From NCBI GenBank assembly GCA_964585065.1, contig CAZPCB010000002.1, forward strand, positions 166,967 to 230,966: a stretch of 64,000 nt of DNA, read 5' to 3'. A program made the translations under genes and the position numbers. Origin of the DNA: an uncultured Candidatus Saccharibacteria bacterium (lineage in GTDB: Bacteria; Patescibacteriota; Minisyncoccia; SW-4-49-11). The notes under the pieces were generated by a model. The model worked only from the letters and a program-made list of their open reading frames with translations. It ran no database searches and was not told the origin of the DNA. Below are positions 636 to 57,300 of this stretch, piece after piece (position 1 is the first letter of the stretch; each line of letters begins with the position of its first letter).

Positions 636-1404
636 TAATGCGTCTTTTATCGAGTACAGAATAATAGGGTCTTTGAGCAGGAGTAGGATAATCTGTGGTT
701 GGAATTGGTATTATTTGGCATTTGATATTTTGTAGGTTTACAATTTCATAAGTAAAATCATACCAAGATGCCACACCTTGATTAGAATAATGTAAAATTT
801 GTTTTGTCCCAGATGGGAGTTTGGGTAATAATTCAAGAATAGCTTTAGCTAAATCAGGAGCATAAGTTGGGCTTCCAATTTGATCTGAAACTATATTGAG
901 TATATCTCGCTCTTGGGCAAGGCGGATGATTGACTTTACAAAATTATTGCCATAAGGAGAATATAGCCAAGAAGTTCGAATAATATATGCTGAATGCGCA
1001 AGTTCTATAATAGCCTTCTCACCCTCTAATTTGGATTTACCATATATGGAAAGGGGATTAGTAGTGTCATCTTCTGTATAGGGAATATGATTTGTCCCAT
1101 CGAATACATAATCAGTGGAAATATGTATAAGGGGAATTGTGAATTGCTGACTAATAAGGGCAAGATTATGAGCTCCCTCACTATTTACTTGATAGGCAAT
1201 TTCAATTTCTTGCTCGGCTTTATCTACTGCGGTATAGGCAGCCGCATTGATAATAGAATTAATAAAATTTTTCTCTACAAAATCTTGTAGAGCTGATATA
1301 TTAGTAATATCTAATTCACGACCTTTGAATATAGCTTGCTCGTCAGTGAGAATAGCTCTTAGACATTGTCCCAATTGCCCATTGGCTCCTGTTACCAATA
1401 TCAT
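568..1404 (-). CDS. rfbD: dTDP-4-dehydrorhamnose reductase
   Basis: Rossmann motif MILVTGANGQLG and HISTDYVFDG are typical of RmlD. The start is placed at the internal ATG at 1404-1402, which forms an ATGA overlap with the rfbC stop; the ORF track extends to 1437. Confidence 0.8.
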   Translation of the reverse strand: MILVTGANGQLGQCLRAILTDEQAIFKGRELDITNISALQDFVEKNFINSIINAAAYTAVDKAEQEIEIAYQVNSEGAHNLALISQQFTIPLIHISTDYVFDGTNHIPYTEDDTTNPLSIYGKSKLEGEKAIIELAHSAYIIRTSWLYSPYGNNFVKSIIRLAQERDILNIVSDQIGSPTYAPDLAKAILELLPKLPSGTKQILHYSNQGVASWYDFTYEIVNLQNIKCQIIPIPTTDYPTPAQRPYYSVLDKRRITTIVNSPIPHWKYSLQRYLESQ

Positions 1405-2538: not shown

Positions 2539-5424
2539 ATGTTTAATAAACCTCCCTTTAATGTTTCTTTTCCTGATTTGGAAAAAGATATACTTGAGTT
2601 TTGGAAAATTGAGAATATTCTACAAAAATCTATAGAGTCACGGCCCGCAGATAAGACCAAAACATTTTATGATGGGCCTATTACGGCAAATGGGGAGCCT
2701 CATTCAGGACATATGCTTACTTTTGCATTGAAGGATATTATGCCTCGTTATTGGACTATGAAAGGATATAGAGTTACTCGTAGTCTTGGTTGGGACTGTC
2801 AGGGTATTCCAGTTGAATATGAGATTGAAAAGAAACTTGGATTTCAACAAAAAAAGGATATAGAAGAATATGGAATAGCCAAATTTAATCAATTATGTCG
2901 TGAATCGGTATCTACTCATCGTGAGGGTATTATTGAATTAGAAGAAAAATTAGGAAGACTTACCAATTCGGATGAAGAATATGCTACTATGGATGCTGAT
3001 TATATTGAATCAGTATGGTGGAGTTTATCAGAATTATATCGCAAGGGGCTTTTGTATGAAGGATTCAAAGTAGTGCCATATTCTACTCGGGCAGGCACAA
3101 CACTTTCTAATGCTGAGGTGGCACTGGGAGGGTATAAAAAACAAATTGATCCTGCTGTTACGATTAAATTTGAGCTAATAGATAAAGCTAATACCTTTGT
3201 ACTTGCCTGGACTACTACTCCTTGGACTTTACCTACTAATTTTGCTTTAGCTGTAGGTAAGGATATTGATTATATTGAAGTTAGCATACTGAATACAGAA
3301 GAGCATTATATTGTGGCTCGGGATTTAGCCGAGAATATATTCGGGTTAGATTATACCGTAGTGGAAGAATATAAGGGTTCGGATTTGGTTGGAAAATCTT
3401 ATAAACCTTTATTTGATTTTTTTGAGGGAAAAGAATATTCTTTTGTCATTTATGATGGCGCCCATGTTACGACAGAATCTGGTACTGGTATTGTACATCT
3501 TGCTCCTTATGGTGCTGAGGACAATGAAATTTTCCAGCAAGTAGGAATTCTATCGGTAGATGTGATTAATGATCAAGGTGATTTTATTGATGAAATTAAG
3601 CCCTATGCAGGGATGTTTTATCGTAAAGCTAACAAATATATTATTGAGGATTTGAGAACAGCAAATAAGCTTTATAAAGTGGAGGATTATGAGCATGATT
3701 TGCCTATGTGTTGGCGTACGAACACTCCTTTGATTTATAAGCCTATTACTTCTTGGTATGTAGCAATGAGTACTTTGCGTGATAGATTAGCAGAGAATAA
3801 TAATGCTATTGGCTGGATTCCTGATCATATTAAAGAGGGGAGATTTGGTAATTGGTTGAGAGAAATCAAAGATTGGGGGATTTCTCGGACACGATATTGG
3901 GGTACTCCACTTCCAATATGGAAATCTGAATCAGGTAAGACGAAAATTATTGGTTCATTTACTGAATTAAAAGAATTATCTGGAGTTGAGTTGGATGACC
4001 CCCATAGACCTTTTGTAGATGATATATCATTTACGTTTGAGGGAGAGACATATAACAGAATTCCTGATGTATTAGATGTTTGGTATGATTCAGGGTCTAT
4101 GCCTTTTGCTCGATTTCATTATCCTTTTGAAAATAAAGAATTATTTGAGTCTAAATTCCCAGCAGAATATATCGCTGAAGGGGTGGATCAGACTAGAGGT
4201 TGGTTTTATTCTCTTCTTGCTCTCTCTACCGCATTATTTGATCAGCCAAGCTATCGCAATGTGATTGTAAATGGATTAGTTTTAGCTGATGATGGACAAA
4301 AATTATCTAAGAGTAAGAAAAATTATACTAATCCAATTGAGCTTATTGATCAATTTGGAGCTGATGCTGTGAGACTTAACTTTTTCTCTACTCCAATCTC
4401 AGCAGGAGAAGATACTATTATTTCAGGGAAGACAGTCAAACTTATGACTCAAGAATATATATTGCCTCTATGGAATATATATAGTTTTCTTGTTACCTAT
4501 GCTAATGTGAGTGATTGGACTCCTGCTTCTCAATCTGAAAAGCCCAAAAATCCTAAAAATGAATGGTTATATACGAGACTCAATTATACTATTCAAGAGG
4601 TGAATATGTCTCTAGATAATTATCGTATACCTCAGGCTACTCGTGAGATTAAAGCTTGTATGGATGATATGTCTAAATGGTATATTCGTACAGCTCGTAA
4701 TGATTTTGCAAGCGGAGATATTGAATTCCTACAAACTTTATATGATAATTTTGTAAGATTGTTGCATCTCCTGGCACCATTTGCTCCATTTATTACCGAA
4801 TATCTCTATCAGCAATTAGTGGTATCACAAAATTCTGAGGCTAGTCAGTCAATTCATTTAAGTCAATATCCAGAATATGATGGTAAAATCGATGAGTTAG
4901 TATTGAATCAAGTAGAACAGGTAAAAGTTATTCTGGAGCAAGGATTTAAGCTTCGAGAAGTATCGAGTATCAAGGTAAGGCAGCCGTTACAATCACTCGG
5001 AGTAGAGGGATTAGAACTTACTGATTGGATGCAAGATATTATCAAGACAGAAATTAATGTAAAACAGGTATTAACTCATAAAGTTTCAGATAATAGTATT
5101 GAACATTTAGGATATATATTAAGCCTTGATGATATTATTACAGATGAACTTCGTGAGGAGGGATTAGTGCGAGAATTAATTCGTAATCTTCAAATTACTC
5201 GTAAAAATGCTCGCCTTTCTAAGGAGCAGAATATTAAACTTGCTGTAGATGCTTCAGATATAATTGTAAATCTTATCAAGTCTCATCAAGCAATTATTAG
5301 TGAGCCTGTAGGTGTGGTGGAATGGGAATTTACATCTCTTACTGAACCAGAAAATACGCAAAAAGTAAAAGTAGAACAAGAGGAATTTTTGATTTATATC
5401 ACAGTACTTGAGGAGACAAAATAG
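2539..5424 (+). CDS. ileS: Isoleucine--tRNA ligase
   Basis: 961 aa class I aaRS with HIGH-like motif (PHSGHML), KMSKS motif (KLSKSKKN) and editing-domain length. Confidence 0.95.
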   Translation: MFNKPPFNVSFPDLEKDILEFWKIENILQKSIESRPADKTKTFYDGPITANGEPHSGHMLTFALKDIMPRYWTMKGYRVTRSLGWDCQGIPVEYEIEKKLGFQQKKDIEEYGIAKFNQLCRESVSTHREGIIELEEKLGRLTNSDEEYATMDADYIESVWWSLSELYRKGLLYEGFKVVPYSTRAGTTLSNAEVALGGYKKQIDPAVTIKFELIDKANTFVLAWTTTPWTLPTNFALAVGKDIDYIEVSILNTEEHYIVARDLAENIFGLDYTVVEEYKGSDLVGKSYKPLFDFFEGKEYSFVIYDGAHVTTESGTGIVHLAPYGAEDNEIFQQVGILSVDVINDQGDFIDEIKPYAGMFYRKANKYIIEDLRTANKLYKVEDYEHDLPMCWRTNTPLIYKPITSWYVAMSTLRDRLAENNNAIGWIPDHIKEGRFGNWLREIKDWGISRTRYWGTPLPIWKSESGKTKIIGSFTELKELSGVELDDPHRPFVDDISFTFEGETYNRIPDVLDVWYDSGSMPFARFHYPFENKELFESKFPAEYIAEGVDQTRGWFYSLLALSTALFDQPSYRNVIVNGLVLADDGQKLSKSKKNYTNPIELIDQFGADAVRLNFFSTPISAGEDTIISGKTVKLMTQEYILPLWNIYSFLVTYANVSDWTPASQSEKPKNPKNEWLYTRLNYTIQEVNMSLDNYRIPQATREIKACMDDMSKWYIRTARNDFASGDIEFLQTLYDNFVRLLHLLAPFAPFITEYLYQQLVVSQNSEASQSIHLSQYPEYDGKIDELVLNQVEQVKVILEQGFKLREVSSIKVRQPLQSLGVEGLELTDWMQDIIKTEINVKQVLTHKVSDNSIEHLGYILSLDDIITDELREEGLVRELIRNLQITRKNARLSKEQNIKLAVDASDIIVNLIKSHQAIISEPVGVVEWEFTSLTEPENTQKVKVEQEEFLIYITVLEETK

Positions 5425-5427
5425 TCT

Positions 5428-6231
5428 ATGAAAATAATCAAAGAACAAGAATTCATACAGCTTGTTTGGGATTATTATTATCAGCATAAGAGACCCATGC
5501 CTTGGAGGGATAATACCAATCCCTATTGGGTTATTGTCTCTGAGATTATGCTACAGCAAACTCAAGTAGCGAGAGTTCTTGAGAAATTCCCTATATTCAT
5601 AAAGCAATTCCCAAGTTTTGAAGTTTTGGCAGAATCTAGTCTTTTGGAAGTATTGCAGGCTTGGCAGGGATTGGGTTATAATCGGCGAGGTAAATATCTT
5701 TGGCAAATTTCCCAAAAGATAATGCAGGAATATGATGGGGTTCTACCAGATAATCCTGATATATTAATTCATTTTCCTGGTATTGGTAAGGCTACAGCTG
5801 CTTCAATTATAGCCTTTGCTTATAATAAGCCCACCATATTTATTGAGACAAATATTAGGCGAGTTTATATTCATCATTTTTTCTCTGAAGCAGAGAATAT
5901 TCCGGATAATGATCTAATTCCTCTTATTGAGAAGACAGTATCTAAGGATAATCCAAGAGAATGGTATTATGCTTTGATGGATTATGGAACTTATCTGAAA
6001 ACTCAAATTAGTAATCCTAATCGTAAAAGTAAACATTATACTCGCCAAAGTGTATTTGAAGGTTCTAATAGACAAATACGTTCACAAATTATCAAACTAT
6101 TATTACAAGGACCAAAAACTTTGTCTGAGATACAAGATATGATTTCAGATAGTAGGGTTCAAGATAATATAGAATCTTTAGTAAAAGAAGAATTAATAAA
6201 AAAGGAGAAAAATCAGTATATAATTCGTTAA
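5428..6231 (+). CDS. HhH-GPD base-excision DNA glycosylase (MutY/endonuclease III-like)
   Basis: PWR..NPYWVIVSEIMLQQTQV motif and helix-hairpin-helix region. No C-terminal 4-Cys Fe-S cluster motif visible. Confidence 0.7.
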   Translation: MKIIKEQEFIQLVWDYYYQHKRPMPWRDNTNPYWVIVSEIMLQQTQVARVLEKFPIFIKQFPSFEVLAESSLLEVLQAWQGLGYNRRGKYLWQISQKIMQEYDGVLPDNPDILIHFPGIGKATAASIIAFAYNKPTIFIETNIRRVYIHHFFSEAENIPDNDLIPLIEKTVSKDNPREWYYALMDYGTYLKTQISNPNRKSKHYTRQSVFEGSNRQIRSQIIKLLLQGPKTLSEIQDMISDSRVQDNIESLVKEELIKKEKNQYIIR

Positions 6232-19206: not shown

Positions 19207-19653
19207 TTATTTACGGAAGACAAAAAATTTATAACCAACAAAGCTCACAATCATTGATCCCCCTGTTCCTAATAGTTTACCAATAATTGCCGGATCTATC
19301 AATTGAGAGGGGATAAAAGATAAGGATAGTGGGAGGAGAATAGTTGCTGGCAATATGAATATGGTTAGCCTTAATATAGTGGTATTAACAATAAATCCTA
19401 AGGCATTCACAATGAGAAAACTCCCAAATTCTCGAGGCTTAGTTTTTTTCTTATGTTGAAAGGTAATATATTTATTGGCAAAATAACTAAATATAATAGC
19501 AGTAATTATGGAGATGAGATTAATATAGATAATAGAATGTGATTCATTAGAAATATTAAAGCTATATTTCAATAAAGCAAATACCCCGATATCAATCGAG
19601 GTATTTAGAACTCCAATAATAGCAAAGAGTATTATTTCACGTGTTTTTACCAA
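19207..19653 (-). CDS. GtrA-family membrane protein (polysaccharide synthesis/translocation-associated)
   Basis: Four-TM small protein of GtrA type. Apparent TTG start; no in-frame ATG near the N-terminus. Confidence 0.6.
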   Translation of the reverse strand: MVKTREIILFAIIGVLNTSIDIGVFALLKYSFNISNESHSIIYINLISIITAIIFSYFANKYITFQHKKKTKPREFGSFLIVNALGFIVNTTILRLTIFILPATILLPLSLSFIPSQLIDPAIIGKLLGTGGSMIVSFVGYKFFVFRK

Positions 19654-20339
19654 GGCTGTATTTTTAGTGGTTCATCAGAATTTTCTTCTTCAGATTTAGT
19701 ATCCTCTGAAGCTTCCTCTAGAAGGGGAGTATCATCTACAATTTCCTCATCAATGTCAATATTAGGGACTACTTCAGGAGTATCATTGAGATTAGATGGA
19801 GCATTCGTATTTATAATTCCAAGTGCTTGAGCTGATACTACATTTTCAATAGCTGCCCATTCACTTTTTTTGGTAAGTGGGGTGAGAATTGTTACTTCAT
19901 CACCAGGAGATAATCTAAAATAGGTTACAGAAGCAGTTAAAAGTCTATATAATTCATTTCCTACTTTTGCAAAATAACTATTATCTTGATAAATAATATT
20001 CCCAATAGCTCGACGTCGTGGAGCGGGTCCAATTTGCTTATAAATAAAAGCTCCATCAGCGGTAATAGTAAGCTTTAATTGATCTCCTTCAATTAATTTA
20101 GATTTACTAGCATAATTAGCAGGTACTGGATATTGTTTTTTGGTGTCATCCACCATATATTCACCAGTAAATTCTCCAAGAACAACTTTTTCAGCTTGCC
20201 CAACTACACTTACATAGGATTGATTAGCCCCTGCAACTTGAGTCAACATAGCACGAGCTTGATTGAGTCGAGCTTCTGCTTCTTTTACGATTTGTTCTAA
20301 CTCAGCAATTTGCTGAGATTTGTCCTCAGTATTTGACAT
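19647..20339 (-). CDS. Hypothetical protein (N-terminal coiled coil, acidic C-terminus)
   Basis: 230-aa ORF. TGaTATACT motif about 30 nt upstream. Confidence 0.4.
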   Translation of the reverse strand: MSNTEDKSQQIAELEQIVKEAEARLNQARAMLTQVAGANQSYVSVVGQAEKVVLGEFTGEYMVDDTKKQYPVPANYASKSKLIEGDQLKLTITADGAFIYKQIGPAPRRRAIGNIIYQDNSYFAKVGNELYRLLTASVTYFRLSPGDEVTILTPLTKKSEWAAIENVVSAQALGIINTNAPSNLNDTPEVVPNIDIDEEIVDDTPLLEEASEDTKSEEENSDEPLKIQPW

Positions 20340-20445: not shown

Positions 20446-20528
20446 GCTGGTGTGGTGGAATGGTAGACACGAAGGACTCAAAATCCTTTGGAGGTAACTC
20501 CGTAACGGTTCAAGTCCGTTCACCAGCA
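20446..20528 (+). tRNA. tRNA-Leu (anticodon CAA), type II with long variable arm
   Basis: Acceptor GCTGGTG/CACCAGC. Anticodon stem AAGGA/TCCTT with loop CTCAAAA. Variable stem GGAG/CTCC. T-arm AACGG-TTCAAGT-CCGTT. No encoded CCA. Confidence 0.85.
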
Positions 20529-20534
20529 CAAGTA

Positions 20535-20598: not shown

Positions 20599-22482
20599 TT
20601 AATCTAGGGTACCAATATAATTATATCGAGCTATATACATATCTCTATTACTAGTAGGTGTGAGTGAGATTTGATTAGTACCGCCAATACCAAATGTTGC
20701 AAAACTATTAAAGTCTCCCGCTATTACAAAACCTCCCAGTACCTTCCCAATTGCTATTCCTCTATCTGAACCCATTCCTCCAGCTCTTCGAGCCCAAGCA
20801 AGAGTCCCATCAGTATTATATTTAGCTATAAATACATCATCACTACCACTACTGGTCAGAATAGTCTGATTTGTTTCTCCCGGTCCAAAAGTAGCTGTTC
20901 CATTAAATTGCCCTGTTATAATACTACTTCCATCTATATTCCTCATTATATCAAAACTGCTATCATCATTTAGGCCCCCAGCTTTTTTAGCCCAGATTAA
21001 ACTACCATTATCACTATATTTAGCTATAAATATATCTGAACCACCACTGCTACTTAAGATGGTTTGATTTGTCTCTCCTGGTCCAAAAGTAGCTGTTCCT
21101 TGAAGGTTTCCTATTATAAGACTATCAGTATTAGGTAATGTTCTAACTGCTATGGGGCCATCCCAACCAATTCCACCAACCTTTCGAGCCCAAGCTAAGG
21201 TTCCATTAGTATTATATTTGGCTATAAATCCATCTATATCAGTAGTATTCGTCAATATAGTTTGATTTGCTTCTCCTTGTCCAAGAGTAATATTTCCATA
21301 AAAAGCTCCAATTATGATAGAGCTACCATCATTTAACATACTAACTCCTGTACTATCATCTATATCTGTACCACCAGCTTTTCGAGCCCAAGCAAGAGTC
21401 CCATCAGTATTATATTTAGCTATAAAAGCATCTCTATTCCCAGCATTAGCTACTAGAATAGTCTGATTTGTTTCTCCCGGTCCAAAAGTAGCTGTTCCCT
21501 GAAAGTATCCTACACTAATACTAGTCCCATCAGATAAAGTACTAATACCATAGCCACGTCCATAATCTCCTACTACACTACCAGTAACTCCTTTAGCCCA
21601 AGCAAGAGTCCCATTGGCATTATATTTAGCTATAAATGTGTTATTTGAGATAATACTATTTAATGTTGTTTGATTTGTTTCCCCTTGTCCAAACACTGCA
21701 GTCCCACTAATATAACCCGTTGTAATACTGCTCCCATCAGGAAGACAGCTAATACCATAGCTTATATCATAGTCATTTCCTCCATCCCGCCTAACCCAAG
21801 CCAAACTACCATCGATATTATATTTGGCTACAAATATATCATATCCACTCCCAACAGATGTACGTATGGTCTGATTTGTTTCTCCTGGGGCGAAGGTTGC
21901 ATTTCCTTGAAATAATCCTGTCACTATACTGCTCCCATCAGAATTAGTACACATTCCCCCTGTATTAATAATTTCTCCAGGACTTCCCCCAGCCCGCTTT
22001 GCAAAGTTAACTGGTGTTGCTGGAAGGGTAAAAGTTGTACTTTGAGATTCAGAAGTGAAAGTGGTATTATCAACACTATTAATTCCTCCCACTCCAATTT
22101 TACCATTTGTACTTTTTACTATATAAAAACCACTATTATTGATATCGGTGGAATATGAAGGGATGCTCGCAATATAATTGGGTACTAATACAGATAAATT
22201 TACCTTACCCGTACAAGAGGGTGCTCCTGTTTTACAAATTTCTAGAGAACTACCAGCAGGAACATTCTGGACATCAGTAGGATAAGCTCCAGTTTTGAGT
22301 GCATATTGTTCTATAGCTTGATAGAGAGTAAGGGCATCAGCTTTACGCTTATTGTCATTGACTTCAGTAATAATTCTACTTGGATTAAGAGTATATAATA
22401 CTGTAGCAAAGAGAACAGCAAGTAGAGCAATAACAAGAAGTATTTCGAGTAGGGTAAAACCTTTTTTTGTATAGGGTTTCAT
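20599..22482 (-). CDS. Type IV pilin-like protein with C-terminal SBBP-type beta-propeller repeats (putative pilus adhesin)
   Basis: Prepilin N-terminus MKPYTKKGFTLLEILLVIALLAV (class III signal, GFTLLE). About 8 tandem repeats of the form G..D.S.GIS.L.DGSSI..G.F.GTATFGPGETNQTIL....DAFIAKYN.DGTLAWARK.GG. Confidence 0.7.
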   Translation of the reverse strand: MKPYTKKGFTLLEILLVIALLAVLFATVLYTLNPSRIITEVNDNKRKADALTLYQAIEQYALKTGAYPTDVQNVPAGSSLEICKTGAPSCTGKVNLSVLVPNYIASIPSYSTDINNSGFYIVKSTNGKIGVGGINSVDNTTFTSESQSTTFTLPATPVNFAKRAGGSPGEIINTGGMCTNSDGSSIVTGLFQGNATFAPGETNQTIRTSVGSGYDIFVAKYNIDGSLAWVRRDGGNDYDISYGISCLPDGSSITTGYISGTAVFGQGETNQTTLNSIISNNTFIAKYNANGTLAWAKGVTGSVVGDYGRGYGISTLSDGTSISVGYFQGTATFGPGETNQTILVANAGNRDAFIAKYNTDGTLAWARKAGGTDIDDSTGVSMLNDGSSIIIGAFYGNITLGQGEANQTILTNTTDIDGFIAKYNTNGTLAWARKVGGIGWDGPIAVRTLPNTDSLIIGNLQGTATFGPGETNQTILSSSGGSDIFIAKYSDNGSLIWAKKAGGLNDDSSFDIMRNIDGSSIITGQFNGTATFGPGETNQTILTSSGSDDVFIAKYNTDGTLAWARRAGGMGSDRGIAIGKVLGGFVIAGDFNSFATFGIGGTNQISLTPTSNRDMYIARYNYIGTLD

Positions 22483-33624: not shown

Positions 33625-34905
33625 ATGATTGGATATGCCATTAGTTTAGTCACAAGACGAAAATTAAGAACAATATTAACGAGTTTAGGTATTACTATTG
33701 CAGTTATTCTATTATCTTTGATTATTTTTGGAATGCAGGATCTTAAAAAATTATTAGTGAGTGCCATTCAGACACAATTCAAATCAAATGAAATATTTAT
33801 TTCTAATTCCGGGGGAGCTGGAGTTTTTGCGCCTCCATCAGCTGAAGAAACTGATGCGAATGAAACTACGCTTATTACTCAAGATGTGGTGAATAATATT
33901 AAAAAAATAGAAGGGGTAGACAATACAGTACCTGTTACTATTGTGAATAATCTTGAGATTAAAGTAGACGGTAAAGATAAAGCCTATAGCCCAGCTTTTA
34001 TATCGGGATGGGATATAAAGGGAGATGACACCTATTTTACTGATTTCTGGGGAGATAAAAGTAAGCCAGAAGGAAATAGTATTTTTGTTTCAAAATCAGT
34101 AGCTGAATTCTATGATATTAAACCAGAAGATTTAATTGGGAAAAAAGTAAGTTTTATTACCTCAAAAAGTGCTTTATTTGGCACAGTGAAAACTAAGGAA
34201 ATTCTCGATAGGAAATTCGACTATACTATCAAAGGAGTATTTGACCCAGGGTCAGATCGCAATGATGCTATTGTTTCCCTTGATACTTCTGTGGCAATTC
34301 TCACCGATATTGGCGGATTTGATTCTAAAGATGAATATATTTCATCAGTAGGATATGATTTACTTCGAGTAACAGGGGATGAGGCTAATATTAAAGGTAT
34401 TAAACAGGAAATAAAAGATACATATAATTTTAAAGGAATATTTACCGCAGATGATGTATTAGGATTCTTGAATCAAATTATTCAGGCCTTTACTATTGCT
34501 CTTATAGCATTTGGTACCATATCAGCAGTGATTGCAGCCATTGGAATTACCAATACTATGGTAATGAGTATTTATGAGCAAACCAAAGAAATTGGTATAT
34601 TAAAGGCAATGGGAGCATCTAATGGACAGATTTTAGGAGTATTCTTGATACAATCAGCTTTAATCGGATTATTAGGAGGTATAGTTGGGCTATTCGTAGT
34701 AATTGCAAGTATGCAAATTGGAAATATATTTATTGTACAACAACTCAAAGACATTGGTTTTGAAGTTGATACATTTTTCCATTTTAATCTTGGCTCAACT
34801 CTGATAATTGTAGCGATAAGTATATCTATTGGAATATTAGCAGGAATTTACCCGGCTCTTAAGGCTGCTACACTCAATCCAGTAAAAGCTTTAAGATCAG
34901 AATAA
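33625..34905 (+). CDS. ABC transporter permease, FtsX/MacB-like
   Basis: N-terminal TM segment, large periplasmic domain, C-terminal 3-TM FtsX-type module. Confidence 0.75.
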   Translation: MIGYAISLVTRRKLRTILTSLGITIAVILLSLIIFGMQDLKKLLVSAIQTQFKSNEIFISNSGGAGVFAPPSAEETDANETTLITQDVVNNIKKIEGVDNTVPVTIVNNLEIKVDGKDKAYSPAFISGWDIKGDDTYFTDFWGDKSKPEGNSIFVSKSVAEFYDIKPEDLIGKKVSFITSKSALFGTVKTKEILDRKFDYTIKGVFDPGSDRNDAIVSLDTSVAILTDIGGFDSKDEYISSVGYDLLRVTGDEANIKGIKQEIKDTYNFKGIFTADDVLGFLNQIIQAFTIALIAFGTISAVIAAIGITNTMVMSIYEQTKEIGILKAMGASNGQILGVFLIQSALIGLLGGIVGLFVVIASMQIGNIFIVQQLKDIGFEVDTFFHFNLGSTLIIVAISISIGILAGIYPALKAATLNPVKALRSE

Positions 34906-34955
34906 TTATACAAAGATCAAAAATAGGGTATAATAGAAAAAGATAAAATATAAAA

Positions 34956-36206
34956 ATGCAAAAAAAAGGGTTTACATTATTAGAGGTATTACTGGTTATC
35001 GCTTTAATAGGGATATTATTGACTATTATATTGGTAGTCCTCAATCCAAGGGAGCGTTTTGCTGTAGCTCGTAATGATGTTAGGAAATCTGATATACAAA
35101 AATTAGAAGGAGCTCTTACCCAATATCGCTTACAAGAGGGATCCTATCCTGCGGGACTTACTTCAACCTTACAAGAAATTTGTGACCCAGATATTAGTAA
35201 TCCTTCCGTAAATTGTGGTAGCTATATTAACTTATCATCTCTTGTCCCAACTTATATTCAATCCATACCACAAGATCCCCAAGACACTGATTCAACAGGA
35301 GGTTCTGGATATCAAGTTGCGGTAGATGTGACACGAAATGTAGTAGCACTAAAAGCAATACAGGCAGAATCCTCAGCTACAATATCTATTAATGACCCCT
35401 TATCATCGGCTCTACCAAGTACAGCGGTAAATACACCACTTGCAGCAAGTAACCCTTCCATAACTAGTCAAACTCCACCTTTAGTACCTAATACAGGAGA
35501 TGTATCGCTACTGCTCCATGCGGATGGTAGTTTTGCGGACAGTAGTCCTAATAATTTTGTTCCAATGAGTACTGGAGGGACTCCCGGAGTGAGTGGCGAG
35601 GGGGTGCAAATTAGTACTACTCAGAGCAAGTTTGGTGGTTCAAGCCTATTCTTCCCAGATGTGGACATAAATAATGCCCCCTATCCTGCGTTGTCATATT
35701 GGACACCTGAGTCTGGTGGATATAATTATTTCCCTGAGTTTAGCCTAGGAAATACTTATACAATTGAAGCATGGGTCTACGCAATTACACCCAGGGGAGG
35801 AATAGTTGAGAGGCTTGCTGGAGCTTTTTCACAGGAATATGGGTACTCTATGACGTTTGAAGGAGCACGAATAAAATGTTACTTTTACGGAACCTTCGAC
35901 GGTTCAGGATTTCAACAGTATATCTTAGCTCCTTCTGCATTTCCCACCTCAACCTGGGTTCATGTAGCGATGGTTCGTAGTGGAACAAACGGAGCCTTAT
36001 ACATTAACGGTGAGTCAGTTGGTACTATAAATAATCTTAACACTCCGCAAGGAAGTGTTAAGCCGGTTCGTATAGGTTCAAAAAGTGTTGGAAGCGGAGG
36101 AAATTATAACACTATCTTCTTCAACGGTTACATAGATGATCTACGTATCACTAAAGGAGTTGCCATATACACCTCTAACTTCACCCCACCTACTTCAGCT
36201 TTTTGA
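34956..36206 (+). CDS. Type IV pilin-like protein with C-terminal LamG/concanavalin A-like lectin domain
   Basis: Prepilin N-terminus MQKKGFTLLEVLLVIALIG. C-terminal 160 aa has the LamG_3 pattern (TWVHVAMVRSG..ALYINGESVG...FNGYIDDLRITKG). Confidence 0.65.
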   Translation: MQKKGFTLLEVLLVIALIGILLTIILVVLNPRERFAVARNDVRKSDIQKLEGALTQYRLQEGSYPAGLTSTLQEICDPDISNPSVNCGSYINLSSLVPTYIQSIPQDPQDTDSTGGSGYQVAVDVTRNVVALKAIQAESSATISINDPLSSALPSTAVNTPLAASNPSITSQTPPLVPNTGDVSLLLHADGSFADSSPNNFVPMSTGGTPGVSGEGVQISTTQSKFGGSSLFFPDVDINNAPYPALSYWTPESGGYNYFPEFSLGNTYTIEAWVYAITPRGGIVERLAGAFSQEYGYSMTFEGARIKCYFYGTFDGSGFQQYILAPSAFPTSTWVHVAMVRSGTNGALYINGESVGTINNLNTPQGSVKPVRIGSKSVGSGGNYNTIFFNGYIDDLRITKGVAIYTSNFTPPTSAF

Positions 36207-36269
36207 TGGGTTATATGTGACCACTTTTTCTGTTGATTAAAGAATTATTATTACCGCTAGAGTAGTATA

Positions 36270-36455
36270 TTGATCAGAGGTGATGGGTCTCGAGGTAATA
36301 CCTTTAATATCGGGGCAGGATTTACGAGTACTGCTCAGAGTATTATACAACAAAATGATGGGAACTTCGTTATAGGTGGCTATTTTGCTACTTATCAAGG
36401 AGTAGCAGAAGCTTATATAGCTCGTCTTAATACAGATGGAAGTAGTGCTCAGTAA
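36270..36455 (+). pseudogene. Remnant of a beta-propeller repeat (IARLNTDGS-type) with no proper start
   Basis: The ORF opens with TTG and has no ATG. The translation GYFATYQGVAEAYIARLNTDGS resembles one blade of the repeat in the pilin at 20599-22482 (FIAKYNTDGT). Confidence 0.35.
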
Positions 36456-36517
36456 GATATTACCCTATCTTTTTTATCATAAATATTCTATACTAGGTCT
36501 AAGATAATGTATTATAT

Positions 36518-37180
36518 ATGAGTATTATAGTTCCCGCGATATTGGCAAGTACCAAACAAGAATTCCGAGAATATCTCAATCAAATTAAATCTGTAGCTCA
36601 TAATATTCAAATAGATATTATGGATGGTGAATTTGTGGAGAGTAAATCTTTATTCCCGAGAGAGTTTTTCTATGAAGATTTTGGAAGTCTCAAAGTGGAA
36701 ATTCATATTATGGCTACTTTCAAAAATACCCAAGATATTATTGAAAGCCTAAAATCATTTGCTCCTCTTACTCGTATTATTGTACATCAAGAAAGTTGTG
36801 AAAATCTTGAGCAATTGCGTCAATTAGTAAATCAAGTAAAGGGTATTAATAAAGAGATCTCTATTGCAATTAACCCCGATACTGATATACGAGATATTGG
36901 TAAAGTAGTAAAGAAAATTGAAGGAGTACAATTCATGGGTGTTAATCCCGGATTTTATGGAGCAGCATTACAAGAAAAGGTTTATAATAAAGTAACTGAA
37001 TTCAAAGAGCGTTATACTATGTATGAGGGAGATATAGCTTGGGATGGGGGAGTTAATAAAGACAATATTAGGACTATTCAAGATTTAGGTGTGAATCGTA
37101 TTGCTATTGGAAGTGGTATATTCAAATCAGATAATCCAGCTCAAAGTTATCAGGAATTAATTATTCTATTAAAGGCATAA
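36518..37180 (+). CDS. rpe: Ribulose-phosphate 3-epimerase
   Basis: IDIMDGEFV, VNPGFYG, IAWDGGVN and IAIGSGIF match the RPE TIM-barrel motifs. Confidence 0.7.
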   Translation: MSIIVPAILASTKQEFREYLNQIKSVAHNIQIDIMDGEFVESKSLFPREFFYEDFGSLKVEIHIMATFKNTQDIIESLKSFAPLTRIIVHQESCENLEQLRQLVNQVKGINKEISIAINPDTDIRDIGKVVKKIEGVQFMGVNPGFYGAALQEKVYNKVTEFKERYTMYEGDIAWDGGVNKDNIRTIQDLGVNRIAIGSGIFKSDNPAQSYQELIILLKA

Positions 37181-38539: not shown

Positions 38540-39805
38540 ATGCAAAATAAAAAAGAAAAAGGCTTTACATTATTGGAGATATTACTAGTAATAGCAGTAA
38601 TAGGAATATTAGCAGCTATAGTATTAATTGCTATTAATCCTAATAAACAAATAGCGCAAGCTCGTAATACTGCTAGGAAAGTTGATATTAATACATTAGA
38701 AAAAGCCTTAAGACAATATTCTATAGATAATGCAGGTCAGCTCCCAAATGTAATACTGAATCAATATAAAGTAATTTGTAGACAAGGTATTACTGATCCT
38801 TCTTGTATTAATCTTGATGTTTTGGTACCCACATATATTGCGGCTATTCCTCGGGATACACAATCAAATACTATTAATACAGGATATTCGGTAGCAGTAA
38901 ATCCCAATAATACGAATGTTTCTATTGTTGCAAATTTAGCTGAACAGTTTGTAGAAATTTCAATTAATAAATTTAATGAAGGAAGTGGTGCTTCGGCTTT
39001 ATTAGCAGCTAATTCTTGTCAATCTATTTTGTCTTCTGGATACTCAACTGGAAATGGAGTATATTGGATTAATTTACCTACTTCAGGTGCTACACAGATA
39101 TATTGTCTTATGGATACATTATTTGATGGTGGTGGCTGGATGTTGGCTATGAAAGCTACTCGCGGCACTACATTTAATTACGACTCTGCTCATTGGACTA
39201 CAACAACAACATTAAATCCCACCGATCTAACGAGAAACGATGCGGATGCTAAGTATCATACTATGAACTATTACCCCACCAGGGATTTAATGGCCGTGTG
39301 GCCAGATATCCCAACAGCTGGAGGAAGTATTCCTAATACTGGAAGCTGGACTTGGTTGGAAAAGAATTTTTACAATGGTGGTAATCGAACTACTCCTATA
39401 AATTTCTTTAGCACAATGGGAACATATAATAATGGCGGAACACCTAGTACGGGTGATTATGGCGGCTATTTTATTAAAGACGCTAAGACATTTAGTGGCT
39501 GGGCAAATGGTGTGTTTTCGAGCCAGGTAGATATTAGATTTTATGGATTCAACTTTATCAATCATCCTAATTACGGATTTAATGGTAGAGTCCGTTGGGG
39601 ATTTGGATGGAATGAGAATGGTGAGGGACTATATACTAGTCCTGCTACACTAGCCACCGGCTGGGCACCTGGGTCGGATGACGTAAGTGGTGGTATAGGT
39701 ATGGCAAGTCAATTTGGTAGTTATTCAGCTGGAGATATAATTAACTGCTGTCAAGATAATACAGGTATAAACCGATCCGCTAGAGTTGAATTATATATTA
39801 GATAA
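38540..39805 (+). CDS. Type IV pilin-like protein with C-terminal fibrinogen-related domain (FReD)
   Basis: Prepilin N-terminus MQNKKEKGFTLLEILLVIAVIG. The segment NSCQSILSSGYSTGNGVYWINLPTSGATQIYCLMDTLFDGGGWMLAMKATRGTTFNY matches the FReD core pattern C..G.SGvY.I.P...VyCDM.tdGGGWT..Q.R.dG..F. Confidence 0.7.
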   Translation: MQNKKEKGFTLLEILLVIAVIGILAAIVLIAINPNKQIAQARNTARKVDINTLEKALRQYSIDNAGQLPNVILNQYKVICRQGITDPSCINLDVLVPTYIAAIPRDTQSNTINTGYSVAVNPNNTNVSIVANLAEQFVEISINKFNEGSGASALLAANSCQSILSSGYSTGNGVYWINLPTSGATQIYCLMDTLFDGGGWMLAMKATRGTTFNYDSAHWTTTTTLNPTDLTRNDADAKYHTMNYYPTRDLMAVWPDIPTAGGSIPNTGSWTWLEKNFYNGGNRTTPINFFSTMGTYNNGGTPSTGDYGGYFIKDAKTFSGWANGVFSSQVDIRFYGFNFINHPNYGFNGRVRWGFGWNENGEGLYTSPATLATGWAPGSDDVSGGIGMASQFGSYSAGDIINCCQDNTGINRSARVELYIR

Positions 39806-41086: not shown

Positions 41087-41099
41087 TCTTCTTTTAGGT

Positions 41100-41480
41100 T
41101 TTTTTACATATTGTCCCTCGCTGGCGAGGGGGGACCACAAAGTGGTGGGTGTGGACCTGATTATGAATAAGATGAGGAATATCATAGACAAAATATGAGT
41201 TATGTAGGGGCGACCTTACAGTCGCCTGTATTCCACCCCGTCCGCCTAAAGGAGACCAACCCCTCAAGAGGGAAATATATAAAAATGTAGTGTTCTAAAT
41301 ATTTCCTGCCTAGGTTGTGGGTATATAGGCCCGCTCTATATCATAAAATACATTGTCCTGAAAATTACCCTCTTGAGGGGTGCCATCTTTGATGGCGGGA
41401 TGGAGGACACTATTGTGTACCTATCTACATTTTAAATTTACCTCTTTGTCTACAAGCTCCTCATCTCAATCTCATACAAA
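41100..41480. repeat. GC-rich hairpin-dense palindromic intergenic element, copy A (paralogous to 56760-57300)
   Basis: Shares the core TATGAATAAGATGAG..ATC.TAGACAAAAT.GAG..GTAGGG..G.CCTTACA.TCGC and CC.CC.AAAGGAGA.CAA with copy B. Internal long inverted repeat (41233-41272 vs 41368-41423) includes CCCCTCAAGAGGG/CCCTCTTGAGGGG. Confidence 0.6.
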
Positions 41481-41518
41481 TTAATCATATATTCATAATT
41501 TCATGATATACTTTCTAT

Positions 41519-56759: not shown

Positions 56760-57300
56760 CAAACAATAATTAATTATAAACTGTAGAGTGGTTGACAAGT
56801 GGGGGAGGAGGTCCCCTCCGAAGGGAGACAAAATACAAGTTGCACAAAAATCCAAACACAGGTGACTGAGAGGTCACCCCTACGAGATTTTATAAAAAGT
56901 TTGTATATATCTCAAGTGCTAATATATACAAACTAGGGTACTTTGTATATATCTATGAATAAGATGAGATACATCGTAGACAAAATGAGATTGGTGTAGG
57001 GTGGCCTTACAATCGCATATGTTTTCGTAACAAAAGAATTATTACTTTTATCCCCCCCTTTTTTTTTGGGGTAGGGGCTGAAAGGCGGGGGTGTATAAGA
57101 TAAAAACTTGAACTCTATCCACCTCCGGCCTGACGGCCACCTCCTCCAAAGGAGAACAATTTTTGTATCAAGCTATGTTTTGTAAGTTATTAATGTATAG
57201 TAATCTGTTTTATATATTAATTTCCCCATCTCCTACAGGTAATAGATAGTAATACAGAGAATAACCGTGACACTCCTCTCTGTACAGAGAATATAATATA
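56760..57300. repeat. GC-rich hairpin-dense palindromic intergenic element, copy B (paralogous to 41100-41480)
   Basis: Shares the core with copy A (about 80% identity over about 70 nt from 56954). Contains a perfect 11-bp palindrome TTTGTATATAT/ATATATACAAA (56900-56932), a C7T9G4 homopolymer run (57052-57071) and a direct repeat TACAGAGAATA. Confidence 0.6.

Follow-up and report, generated by a model that had tools for sequence, protein, structure and literature searches.

In Neisseria, the pilS copies share homology with the variable part of pilE and supply it with sequence by gene conversion. Beta-propeller proteins of the delta-60/DUF5122 family carry six to seven or more tandem repeats per propeller, and a single blade does not form a propeller by itself. 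Modular type IV pilins consist of a pilin module, a short linker and a grafted functional module; lectin-type modules of family PF13385 are among the common grafts, and examples from CPR bacteria are included in the survey of these proteins (Raynaud et al., 2021; PMC8179133). Polymorphic toxins provide a described case of C-terminal displacement, that of the rhs genes, and of orphan CT modules (Jackson et al., 2009; PMC2935791).

The locus described here belongs to a stretch of 64,000 nucleotides (the window, 34% GC) that is a segment of a Candidatus Paceibacteria (CPR) genome. The gene at 34956–36206 (+) has exactly the architecture of the modular type IV pilins (PMC8179133), namely an N-methylation motif (N_methyl, E = 2.7e-6), a pilin domain (GspG-like region at residues 4–110, with T2SSG/GspG matches), a linker that can be aligned with the linkers of relatives and an unrelated C-terminal module, Laminin_G_3 (LamG; PF13385, E = 3e-20, residues 254–400). 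A spacer of 311 nt (36207–36517) separates the stop codon of this pilin from the start of rpe and holds the end of a propeller sequence (Table 1). The best explanation as a whole, to which we assign a probability of roughly 0.6, is that this blade is the displaced end of a former tip: the pilin once carried a propeller, and LamG was swapped in. While the published survey (PMC8179133) catalogues architectures, the present locus offers module turnover at one orthologous slot together with what appears to be a stranded piece of an earlier tip. Pilins with propeller modules occur in the window itself (20599–22482) and in the related locus L053 (4712–5785).

Table 1. Features of the pilin–rpe interval (positions in the window)
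Feature	Position	Strand	Remarks
Conserved core of the modular type IV pilin	34956–35455	+	Class III signal/N-methylation motif, pilin domain, linker ...INDPL..NTPL..SNP
Linker extension and LamG (Laminin_G_3) tip module with its own stop codon	35456–36206	+	Specific to the window lineage
54-nt spacer 3' of the LamG stop	36207–36260	+	Two more in-frame stops
Propeller remnant (predicted)	36261–36455	+	One complete delta-60/DUF5122 repeat, preceded by the tail of the penultimate one (SSILIRGDGS); native-like C-terminus, TAA at 36453–36455
Native upstream region of rpe with conserved TATACT box	36460–36517	+	Common to relatives; right-hand junction of the variable block
rpe (ribulose-phosphate 3-epimerase)	36518–37180	+	PF00834 (Ribul_P_3_epim), E = 4e-30; conserved downstream anchor

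The propeller identity of the fragment is well defined. The sequence-only reading of this DNA had seen no ATG-initiated gene in the spacer and a likeness to one propeller blade in one of its frames, and both observations are borne out. No ATG-initiated ORF of at least 30 aa is present in 36207–36517, the forward ORFs starting with TTG (36270–36455, 61 aa) or, in another frame, with GTG only. The blade frame, open from 36261 to the TAA at 36453–36455, reads SSILIRGDGSRGNTFNIGAGFTSTAQSIIQQNDGNFVIGGYFATYQGVAEAYIARLNTDGSSAQ up to its stop and is preceded by an R and a stop codon. Its similarity to known repeats is significant in profile searches, far above chance: the 61 residues match PF17164 (DUF5122 beta-propeller) with E = 4.4e-8 and 33.7 bits, which passes the gathering cut-off of 27, and TIGR02608 (delta-60 repeat) with E = 1.6e-5 and 24.7 bits, a score at which a single-repeat fragment falls short of the whole-protein threshold of 76.5. 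An exhaustive phmmer search of 1.84 billion representatives with the 61-aa query retrieved 20,447 proteins at E ≤ 1e-3, with 13–66 matched stretches per protein (typically at least 14) at 35–51% identity; each stretch spans query residues ~5–58, and the ORF therefore corresponds to one full repeat unit.

In sequence and length the fragment is a typical repeat of the delta-60/DUF5122 proteins (TIGR02608, PF17164). Unlike the tandem arrays of that family, it comprises one repeat and a stub, so that no propeller can form. The stub SSILIRGDGS looks like the strand that ends the preceding repeat (cf. ...IARLNxDGS), and the open frame begins after a TAG, inside this last strand. An array long enough to close a propeller is absent, one repeat and the last strand of the preceding one being all that is present, and no more blades occur in any frame of the spacer. 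The fragment had been called decayed in the sequence-only reading; it is better described as truncated, since its 33.7 bits compare with ~39 bits per blade in the intact relative from L053, and this near-intact score points to a fairly recent event. As for a close parent, a word-indexed search yielded nothing beyond the ORF and its strain variants, and the exhaustive search only generic delta-60 proteins (best ~51% identity). Of 15 delta-60 proteins with a repeat at their end, 6 stop 1–7 residues past the last matched repeat, and the SBBP propeller pilin of the window itself ends in ...YIARYNYIGTLD. The position of the blade stop is accordingly natural for delta-60 proteins, on modest evidence, given that roughly one in five repeat positions would fit.

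The resemblance that had been drawn between the fragment and the propeller pilin at 20599–22482 (−) did not hold up, and direct paralogy of the two was rejected. The tblastn matches (E = 0.17–0.25) extend over 20–40 residues only and are confined to the [FY]IA[KR][YL]NTDG[ST] strand, and the DNA sequences share no more than an 18-nt match (E = 0.04). The two also represent different repeat subtypes, the best model for the pilin being the SBBP-type NF047494 (67 bits), while the fragment is of the delta-60 type, lacks the SBBP insertion and matches no SBBP model. A tRNA-Leu(CAA) gene at 20446–20529 (+) lies 70 nt from the end of the SBBP propeller pilin, and a 229-aa ORF beyond it (19647–20339, −) has no Pfam match. 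An Rfam search of the window found two tRNAs and nothing else.

The segment 36261–36455 is almost certainly a non-functional 3' remnant and not a working gene, judging from its sequence and its divergence between strains. It has no ATG, N_methyl motif, signal sequence or pilin N-terminus. Compared with the 98%-identical strain L004 (also L001 and L002), the blade differs over 186 nt by seven substitutions, six nonsynonymous and one synonymous, and by a 3-nt deletion. For this one strain pair and these seven substitutions, pN/pS is 1.73 and pN 0.043, whereas eight neighbouring genes including the LamG pilin show pN/pS of 0.00–0.20 and pN of at most 0.009; the LamG module, with pN/pS of 0.14, is under purifying selection. 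Constraint on the blade is relaxed relative to its neighbours (Fisher's exact p = 0.003 for nonsynonymous against synonymous counts, again from seven substitutions in a single strain pair).

That the TTG-start ORF might nevertheless be a real small gene, expressed as a single-blade protein, is suggested by a frame that stays open for 64 codons in a 34%-GC genome, that is still open in the sister strain after the in-frame 3-nt deletion and that is predicted by Prodigal-type callers; 36270–36455 is annotated in this way. We consider this very improbable. Apart from the pN/pS ratio and a pN ~5 times that of any neighbour, it would be a gene without ATG and of a single blade, which cannot form a propeller; it is found in this species only and is missing at the locus in all other lineages, the three database entries being the ORF and its variants from the 98%-identical strain; and no single-repeat protein family appears among the phmmer matches listed, all of which have at least 741 aa. 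Expression by stop-codon read-through from the LamG ORF is ruled out because three stops (TGA, TAA and TAG, within 36204–36260) separate the pilin from the blade, which lies in the same reading frame; that the two share a frame is probably chance. A promoter/terminator scan found no forward-strand terminator between pilin and rpe, with nothing above shuffle expectation.

The surroundings of the pilin are stable among relatives. The order RuvA–RpiB–Tkt–ABC–FtsX–pilin–rpe–Mur is conserved, and its FtsX–pilin–rpe–Mur part is present in all of them. By identity of housekeeping genes, L004 (97–99%) is closest to the window, followed by L052 (85–90%), by L005 and L047 (82–87%) and by L043, L044 and L049 (74–79%). 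The pilin core (34956–35455) shares 76–80% identity with the pilins of relatives, and alignment A5, together with synteny, defines one orthologous locus with a conserved core and alternative C-terminal tips. Short pilins of 156–172 aa occur in L052, L047, L043/44 and L049; they end in or just after the linker (...INDPLPTAP, ...NTPLLESNP or ...NTPLSPTVP before the stop), and rpe follows after 103–194 nt. The LamG module is absent from all of these, including the closest outgroup L052 (rpe 90% identical at the nucleotide level), whose short pilin bears no module. L005 has a long allele whose contig breaks in the linker, and a metagenome scan with its linker peptide as query yielded no relative. 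Long pilins with a different LamG type are encoded in the more distant L054 and L057 (rpe 73–78% identical). A metagenome scan with the rpe alignment recovered five members of the family, L053–L057, the other 75 loci being unrelated rpe genes.

In both subclades of alignment A5 short forms are mixed with long ones, and the linker end has therefore seen repeated gain, loss or exchange of tip modules. Between FtsX and rpe lies a modular type IV pilin whose core and linker are conserved and whose tip differs by lineage: none, several LamG types and an unclassified one. No pilin with an intact propeller was found at the FtsX–rpe slot among the relatives examined. An unrelated intact gene in place of the spacer, which the sequence-only reading would have counted against itself, is absent from L052, L047, L043/44/45, L049–51, L054 and L057. 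In the short pilin P0005, the first ~45 residues are the same as in the L005 allele, and the C-terminal end (...AELSVIISINDPLPTAP) matches P0006; this pilin looks like a mosaic that may have arisen by recombination within the pilin core.

The junctions of the variable block can be placed by comparison with L052. Homology between the two covers 34958–35441 in blastn, extends to 35455 by eye and is back at 36460 (94% identity), which delimits a block at 35456–36459 that is specific to the window and the 98%-identical strains. This block contains the linker extension with LamG, the 54-nt spacer and the blade with its stop, and ends 4 nt past that stop; the conserved motifs of 36460–36517 are also visible in L043 and L047. 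A former translated C-terminal module is expected to end just past its stop, so that the 4-nt junction fits such an origin. An alternative division, with 36207–36262 as native post-stop sequence and the blade as a separate insertion, was rejected, the alignments of this segment to L052, L043, L047 and L049 being no better than those of shuffled sequences; the 54-nt spacer probably arrived with the LamG block.

Base composition differs between the parts of the block. GC3 of the LamG block is 0.32 (80/249) against 0.212 for native genes, pooled from eight local ones (p = 1e-4), and 16 further genes of the window range from 0.16 to 0.26. The blade, with a GC3 of 0.20 (13/64), does not differ from the native pool (p = 1.0); its contrast with LamG (p = 0.07) is marginal at 64 codons. 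By composition, the LamG module looks like the more recent import and the blade like a resident. The best non-self match of LamG has at most 45% identity, and hence neither a donor nor a donor context was found.

Synonymous divergence between the window and L004 is uneven across 33625–36206, pS reaching 0.108 in FtsX and 0.068 in the LamG pilin; it is 0.011–0.024 for tkt, ABC, pilin2 and EPSP. Around the pilin slot, the raised values suggest recombination or alleles of greater age. In the window-specific linker/LamG part (within 35451–36206), L004 moreover lacks 12 nt, with the frame preserved.

A parallel case is found in L053, where the gene upstream of rpe ends in a module of 55% GC and rpe itself has 33%. 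The 655-nt spacer between them (710–1364) holds, at 1019–1117 (+), the sequence HGNVSFVQLYTLALTAEEIQQNFDATKGRFGL followed by a stop (32 codons with stop). L054, L055 and L057 share a LamG type that is complete at the slot, and this stretch is its 3' end: the DNA is 77–83% identical (E from 2e-13 to 4e-9), the stop codons of the stretch and of the intact modules coincide in the alignment and the first post-stop bases match those of L054. Because the stub is homologous to the intact tips of sister loci, it indicates that a tip of foreign composition stranded the end of the old tip at this very slot. By this homology, L053 is a second, better-documented displaced pilin tip. An intact counterpart at this locus in other lineages is thus seen for the L053 stub; for the window blade no intact propeller counterpart was found, the L005 allele being broken in the linker. 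At 4712–5785 (+), L053 further encodes a type IV pilin to which four or more DUF5122/delta-60 repeats are fused (155.6 bits; the gene is cut by the contig end), which establishes that pilin–delta-60 fusions exist in the clade.

The L053 fusion sits after EPSP synthase, where the window has a GC-rich gap of 432 nt; this EPSP–RelA gap measures 23–34 nt in L043, L047 and L049. The genes for Mur ligase and EPSP synthase are direct neighbours in L043, L047 and L049; in the window they are separated by a second modular pilin (N_methyl, 421 aa) at 38540–39805 (+). The C-terminal ~270 aa of this pilin have no Pfam match, and its pilin domain and that of the L053 propeller pilin share 45% identity. GC-rich (~40%) intergenic segments are found at 41087–41518 and 56850–57160 of the window, at 1270–1332 of L053 and at 807–1229 of L055. 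They contain short palindromes (e.g., GGGGCGACCTTACAGTCGCC and CCCTCTTGAGGGG) and stretches of 31–71 nt that are 76–90% identical within the window and between genomes, and may represent a small dispersed repeat or MITE-like element (no Rfam match).

The proposed history builds on the repeat identity of the fragment, its truncation, the lack of constraint, the positions of the junctions, the variability of the slot and the parallel remnant in L053, all of which are supported by the data; from these we infer that a propeller was formerly present on the FtsX–rpe pilin, and in what order the events took place. An earlier allele at the slot would have carried a propeller tip. A LamG segment of foreign composition would then have recombined in, with the left crossover near 35455, at the linker end, and the right crossover inside the propeller array. 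Since LamG brought its own stop, the old last blade and its stop would have been left untranslated just upstream of the rpe promoter region; this old 3' end would have survived between the new stop and that promoter region, which has to be preserved. The remnant would have drifted neutrally since it was stranded.

A different origin would be that the blade was never part of this pilin and arrived together with LamG from a donor locus where it already lay downstream. LamG, the 54-nt spacer and the blade do form one contiguous block missing from the short-pilin relatives, the closest outgroup L052 lacks any module, and one insertion is more parsimonious than two events; given the short pilin of L052, a propeller in situ needs an extra gain or a loss in L052. 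The composition speaks against this origin, as the GC3 of the blade is native (0.20) and that of LamG raised (0.32), and so do the right-hand junction, whose position 4 nt past the blade stop would be a coincidence for passenger DNA, and the L053 stub, demonstrably native by its aligned stop and the post-stop bases shared with L054. We regard such a joint arrival as unlikely, and it merges with the explanation by tip displacement should the block have come from the corresponding slot of another strain, by homologous recombination across the FtsX/pilin and rpe flanks. Less likely still is an independent propeller gene between pilin and rpe of which all but the 3' end was deleted. The native-like C-terminus and stop would suit this idea, as would the fact that nothing links the fragment directly to a pilin N-terminus; yet no separate gene is present in any of the pilin-to-rpe intervals that could be read whole (five distinct lineages: L052, L047, L043/44/45, L049–51 and the long-pilin loci L054 and L057; the contigs of L053 and L055 begin inside the module and show the 3' end of the gene and the spacer only), and the slot demonstrably varies by exchange of the C-terminal module of the pilin.

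The suggestion of the sequence-only reading that LamG replaced an ancestral propeller cassette is partly supported and made plausible by the L053 parallel, the junctions of the block and its composition. In its favor are the non-functional propeller end inside a block that short-pilin relatives lack, the newer-looking composition of LamG and the pilin–propeller fusion in the clade; against it stands that no relative with an intact propeller at the slot was found. The ancestry of the propeller in situ is accordingly a plausible reading, based on analogy, junction geometry and a weak signal of composition.

In terms of known systems, the pattern fits C-terminal displacement as applied to modular pilins, which by analogy with rhs is the most likely mechanism. 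As in rhs, a conserved N-terminal core is combined with variable C-terminal tips in both the window and L053; a new tip of atypical composition appears to bring its own stop, and the old tip or a piece of it to be left downstream, untranslated. Atypical composition of the incoming tip is seen in both cases (LamG GC3 0.32 against 0.21; L053 module GC 0.55 against 0.33 for rpe). Unlike rhs, the product is an adhesive pilus subunit and not a toxin, there is no immunity gene, the end of the core bears no motif such as PxxxxDPxGL, and the pilin remnants are short (32–64 codons). As in the pilE/pilS system of Neisseria, a promoterless, 5'-truncated pilin-related fragment adjoins an expressed pilin gene; unlike pilS, the blade has a fold other than that of the expressed tip, occurs once in the 64-kb window and is evolving neutrally. 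A silent cassette of the pilS type was rejected, since neither the LamG module nor any other part of the expressed pilin resembles the fragment. A bolder proposal is that the FtsX–pilin–rpe slot is a dedicated exchange site for adhesin modules of the pilus tip, with the linker end ..NTPL..P as a fixed left recombination point and stranded 3' pieces retained as substrates or landing pads. We hold this to be improbable; if true, the slot would serve episymbiotic CPR bacteria as a C-terminal-displacement system for the specificity of host attachment.

The object itself is an ordinary gene remnant that records tip swapping, of low novelty as such and of moderate novelty for the turnover of pilin tips in CPR bacteria. 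By itself it is a small piece of a pseudogene, wrongly annotated by gene callers as a hypothetical DUF5122 protein of 61 aa. Directly 3' of a modular pilin, a short ORF that encodes one repeat or the end of a domain may serve as an annotation signature of such events. Taken as a dated scar, the blade, together with the L053 stub, would indicate that modular pilins of closely related Paceibacteria have their tips replaced at a constant point of the linker, with incoming DNA of foreign composition in two cases (LamG in the window and the module of L053). Type IV pili are implicated in the attachment of CPR bacteria to their hosts, and binding specificity could therefore plausibly change through a rapid turnover of tips at a conserved housekeeping locus.
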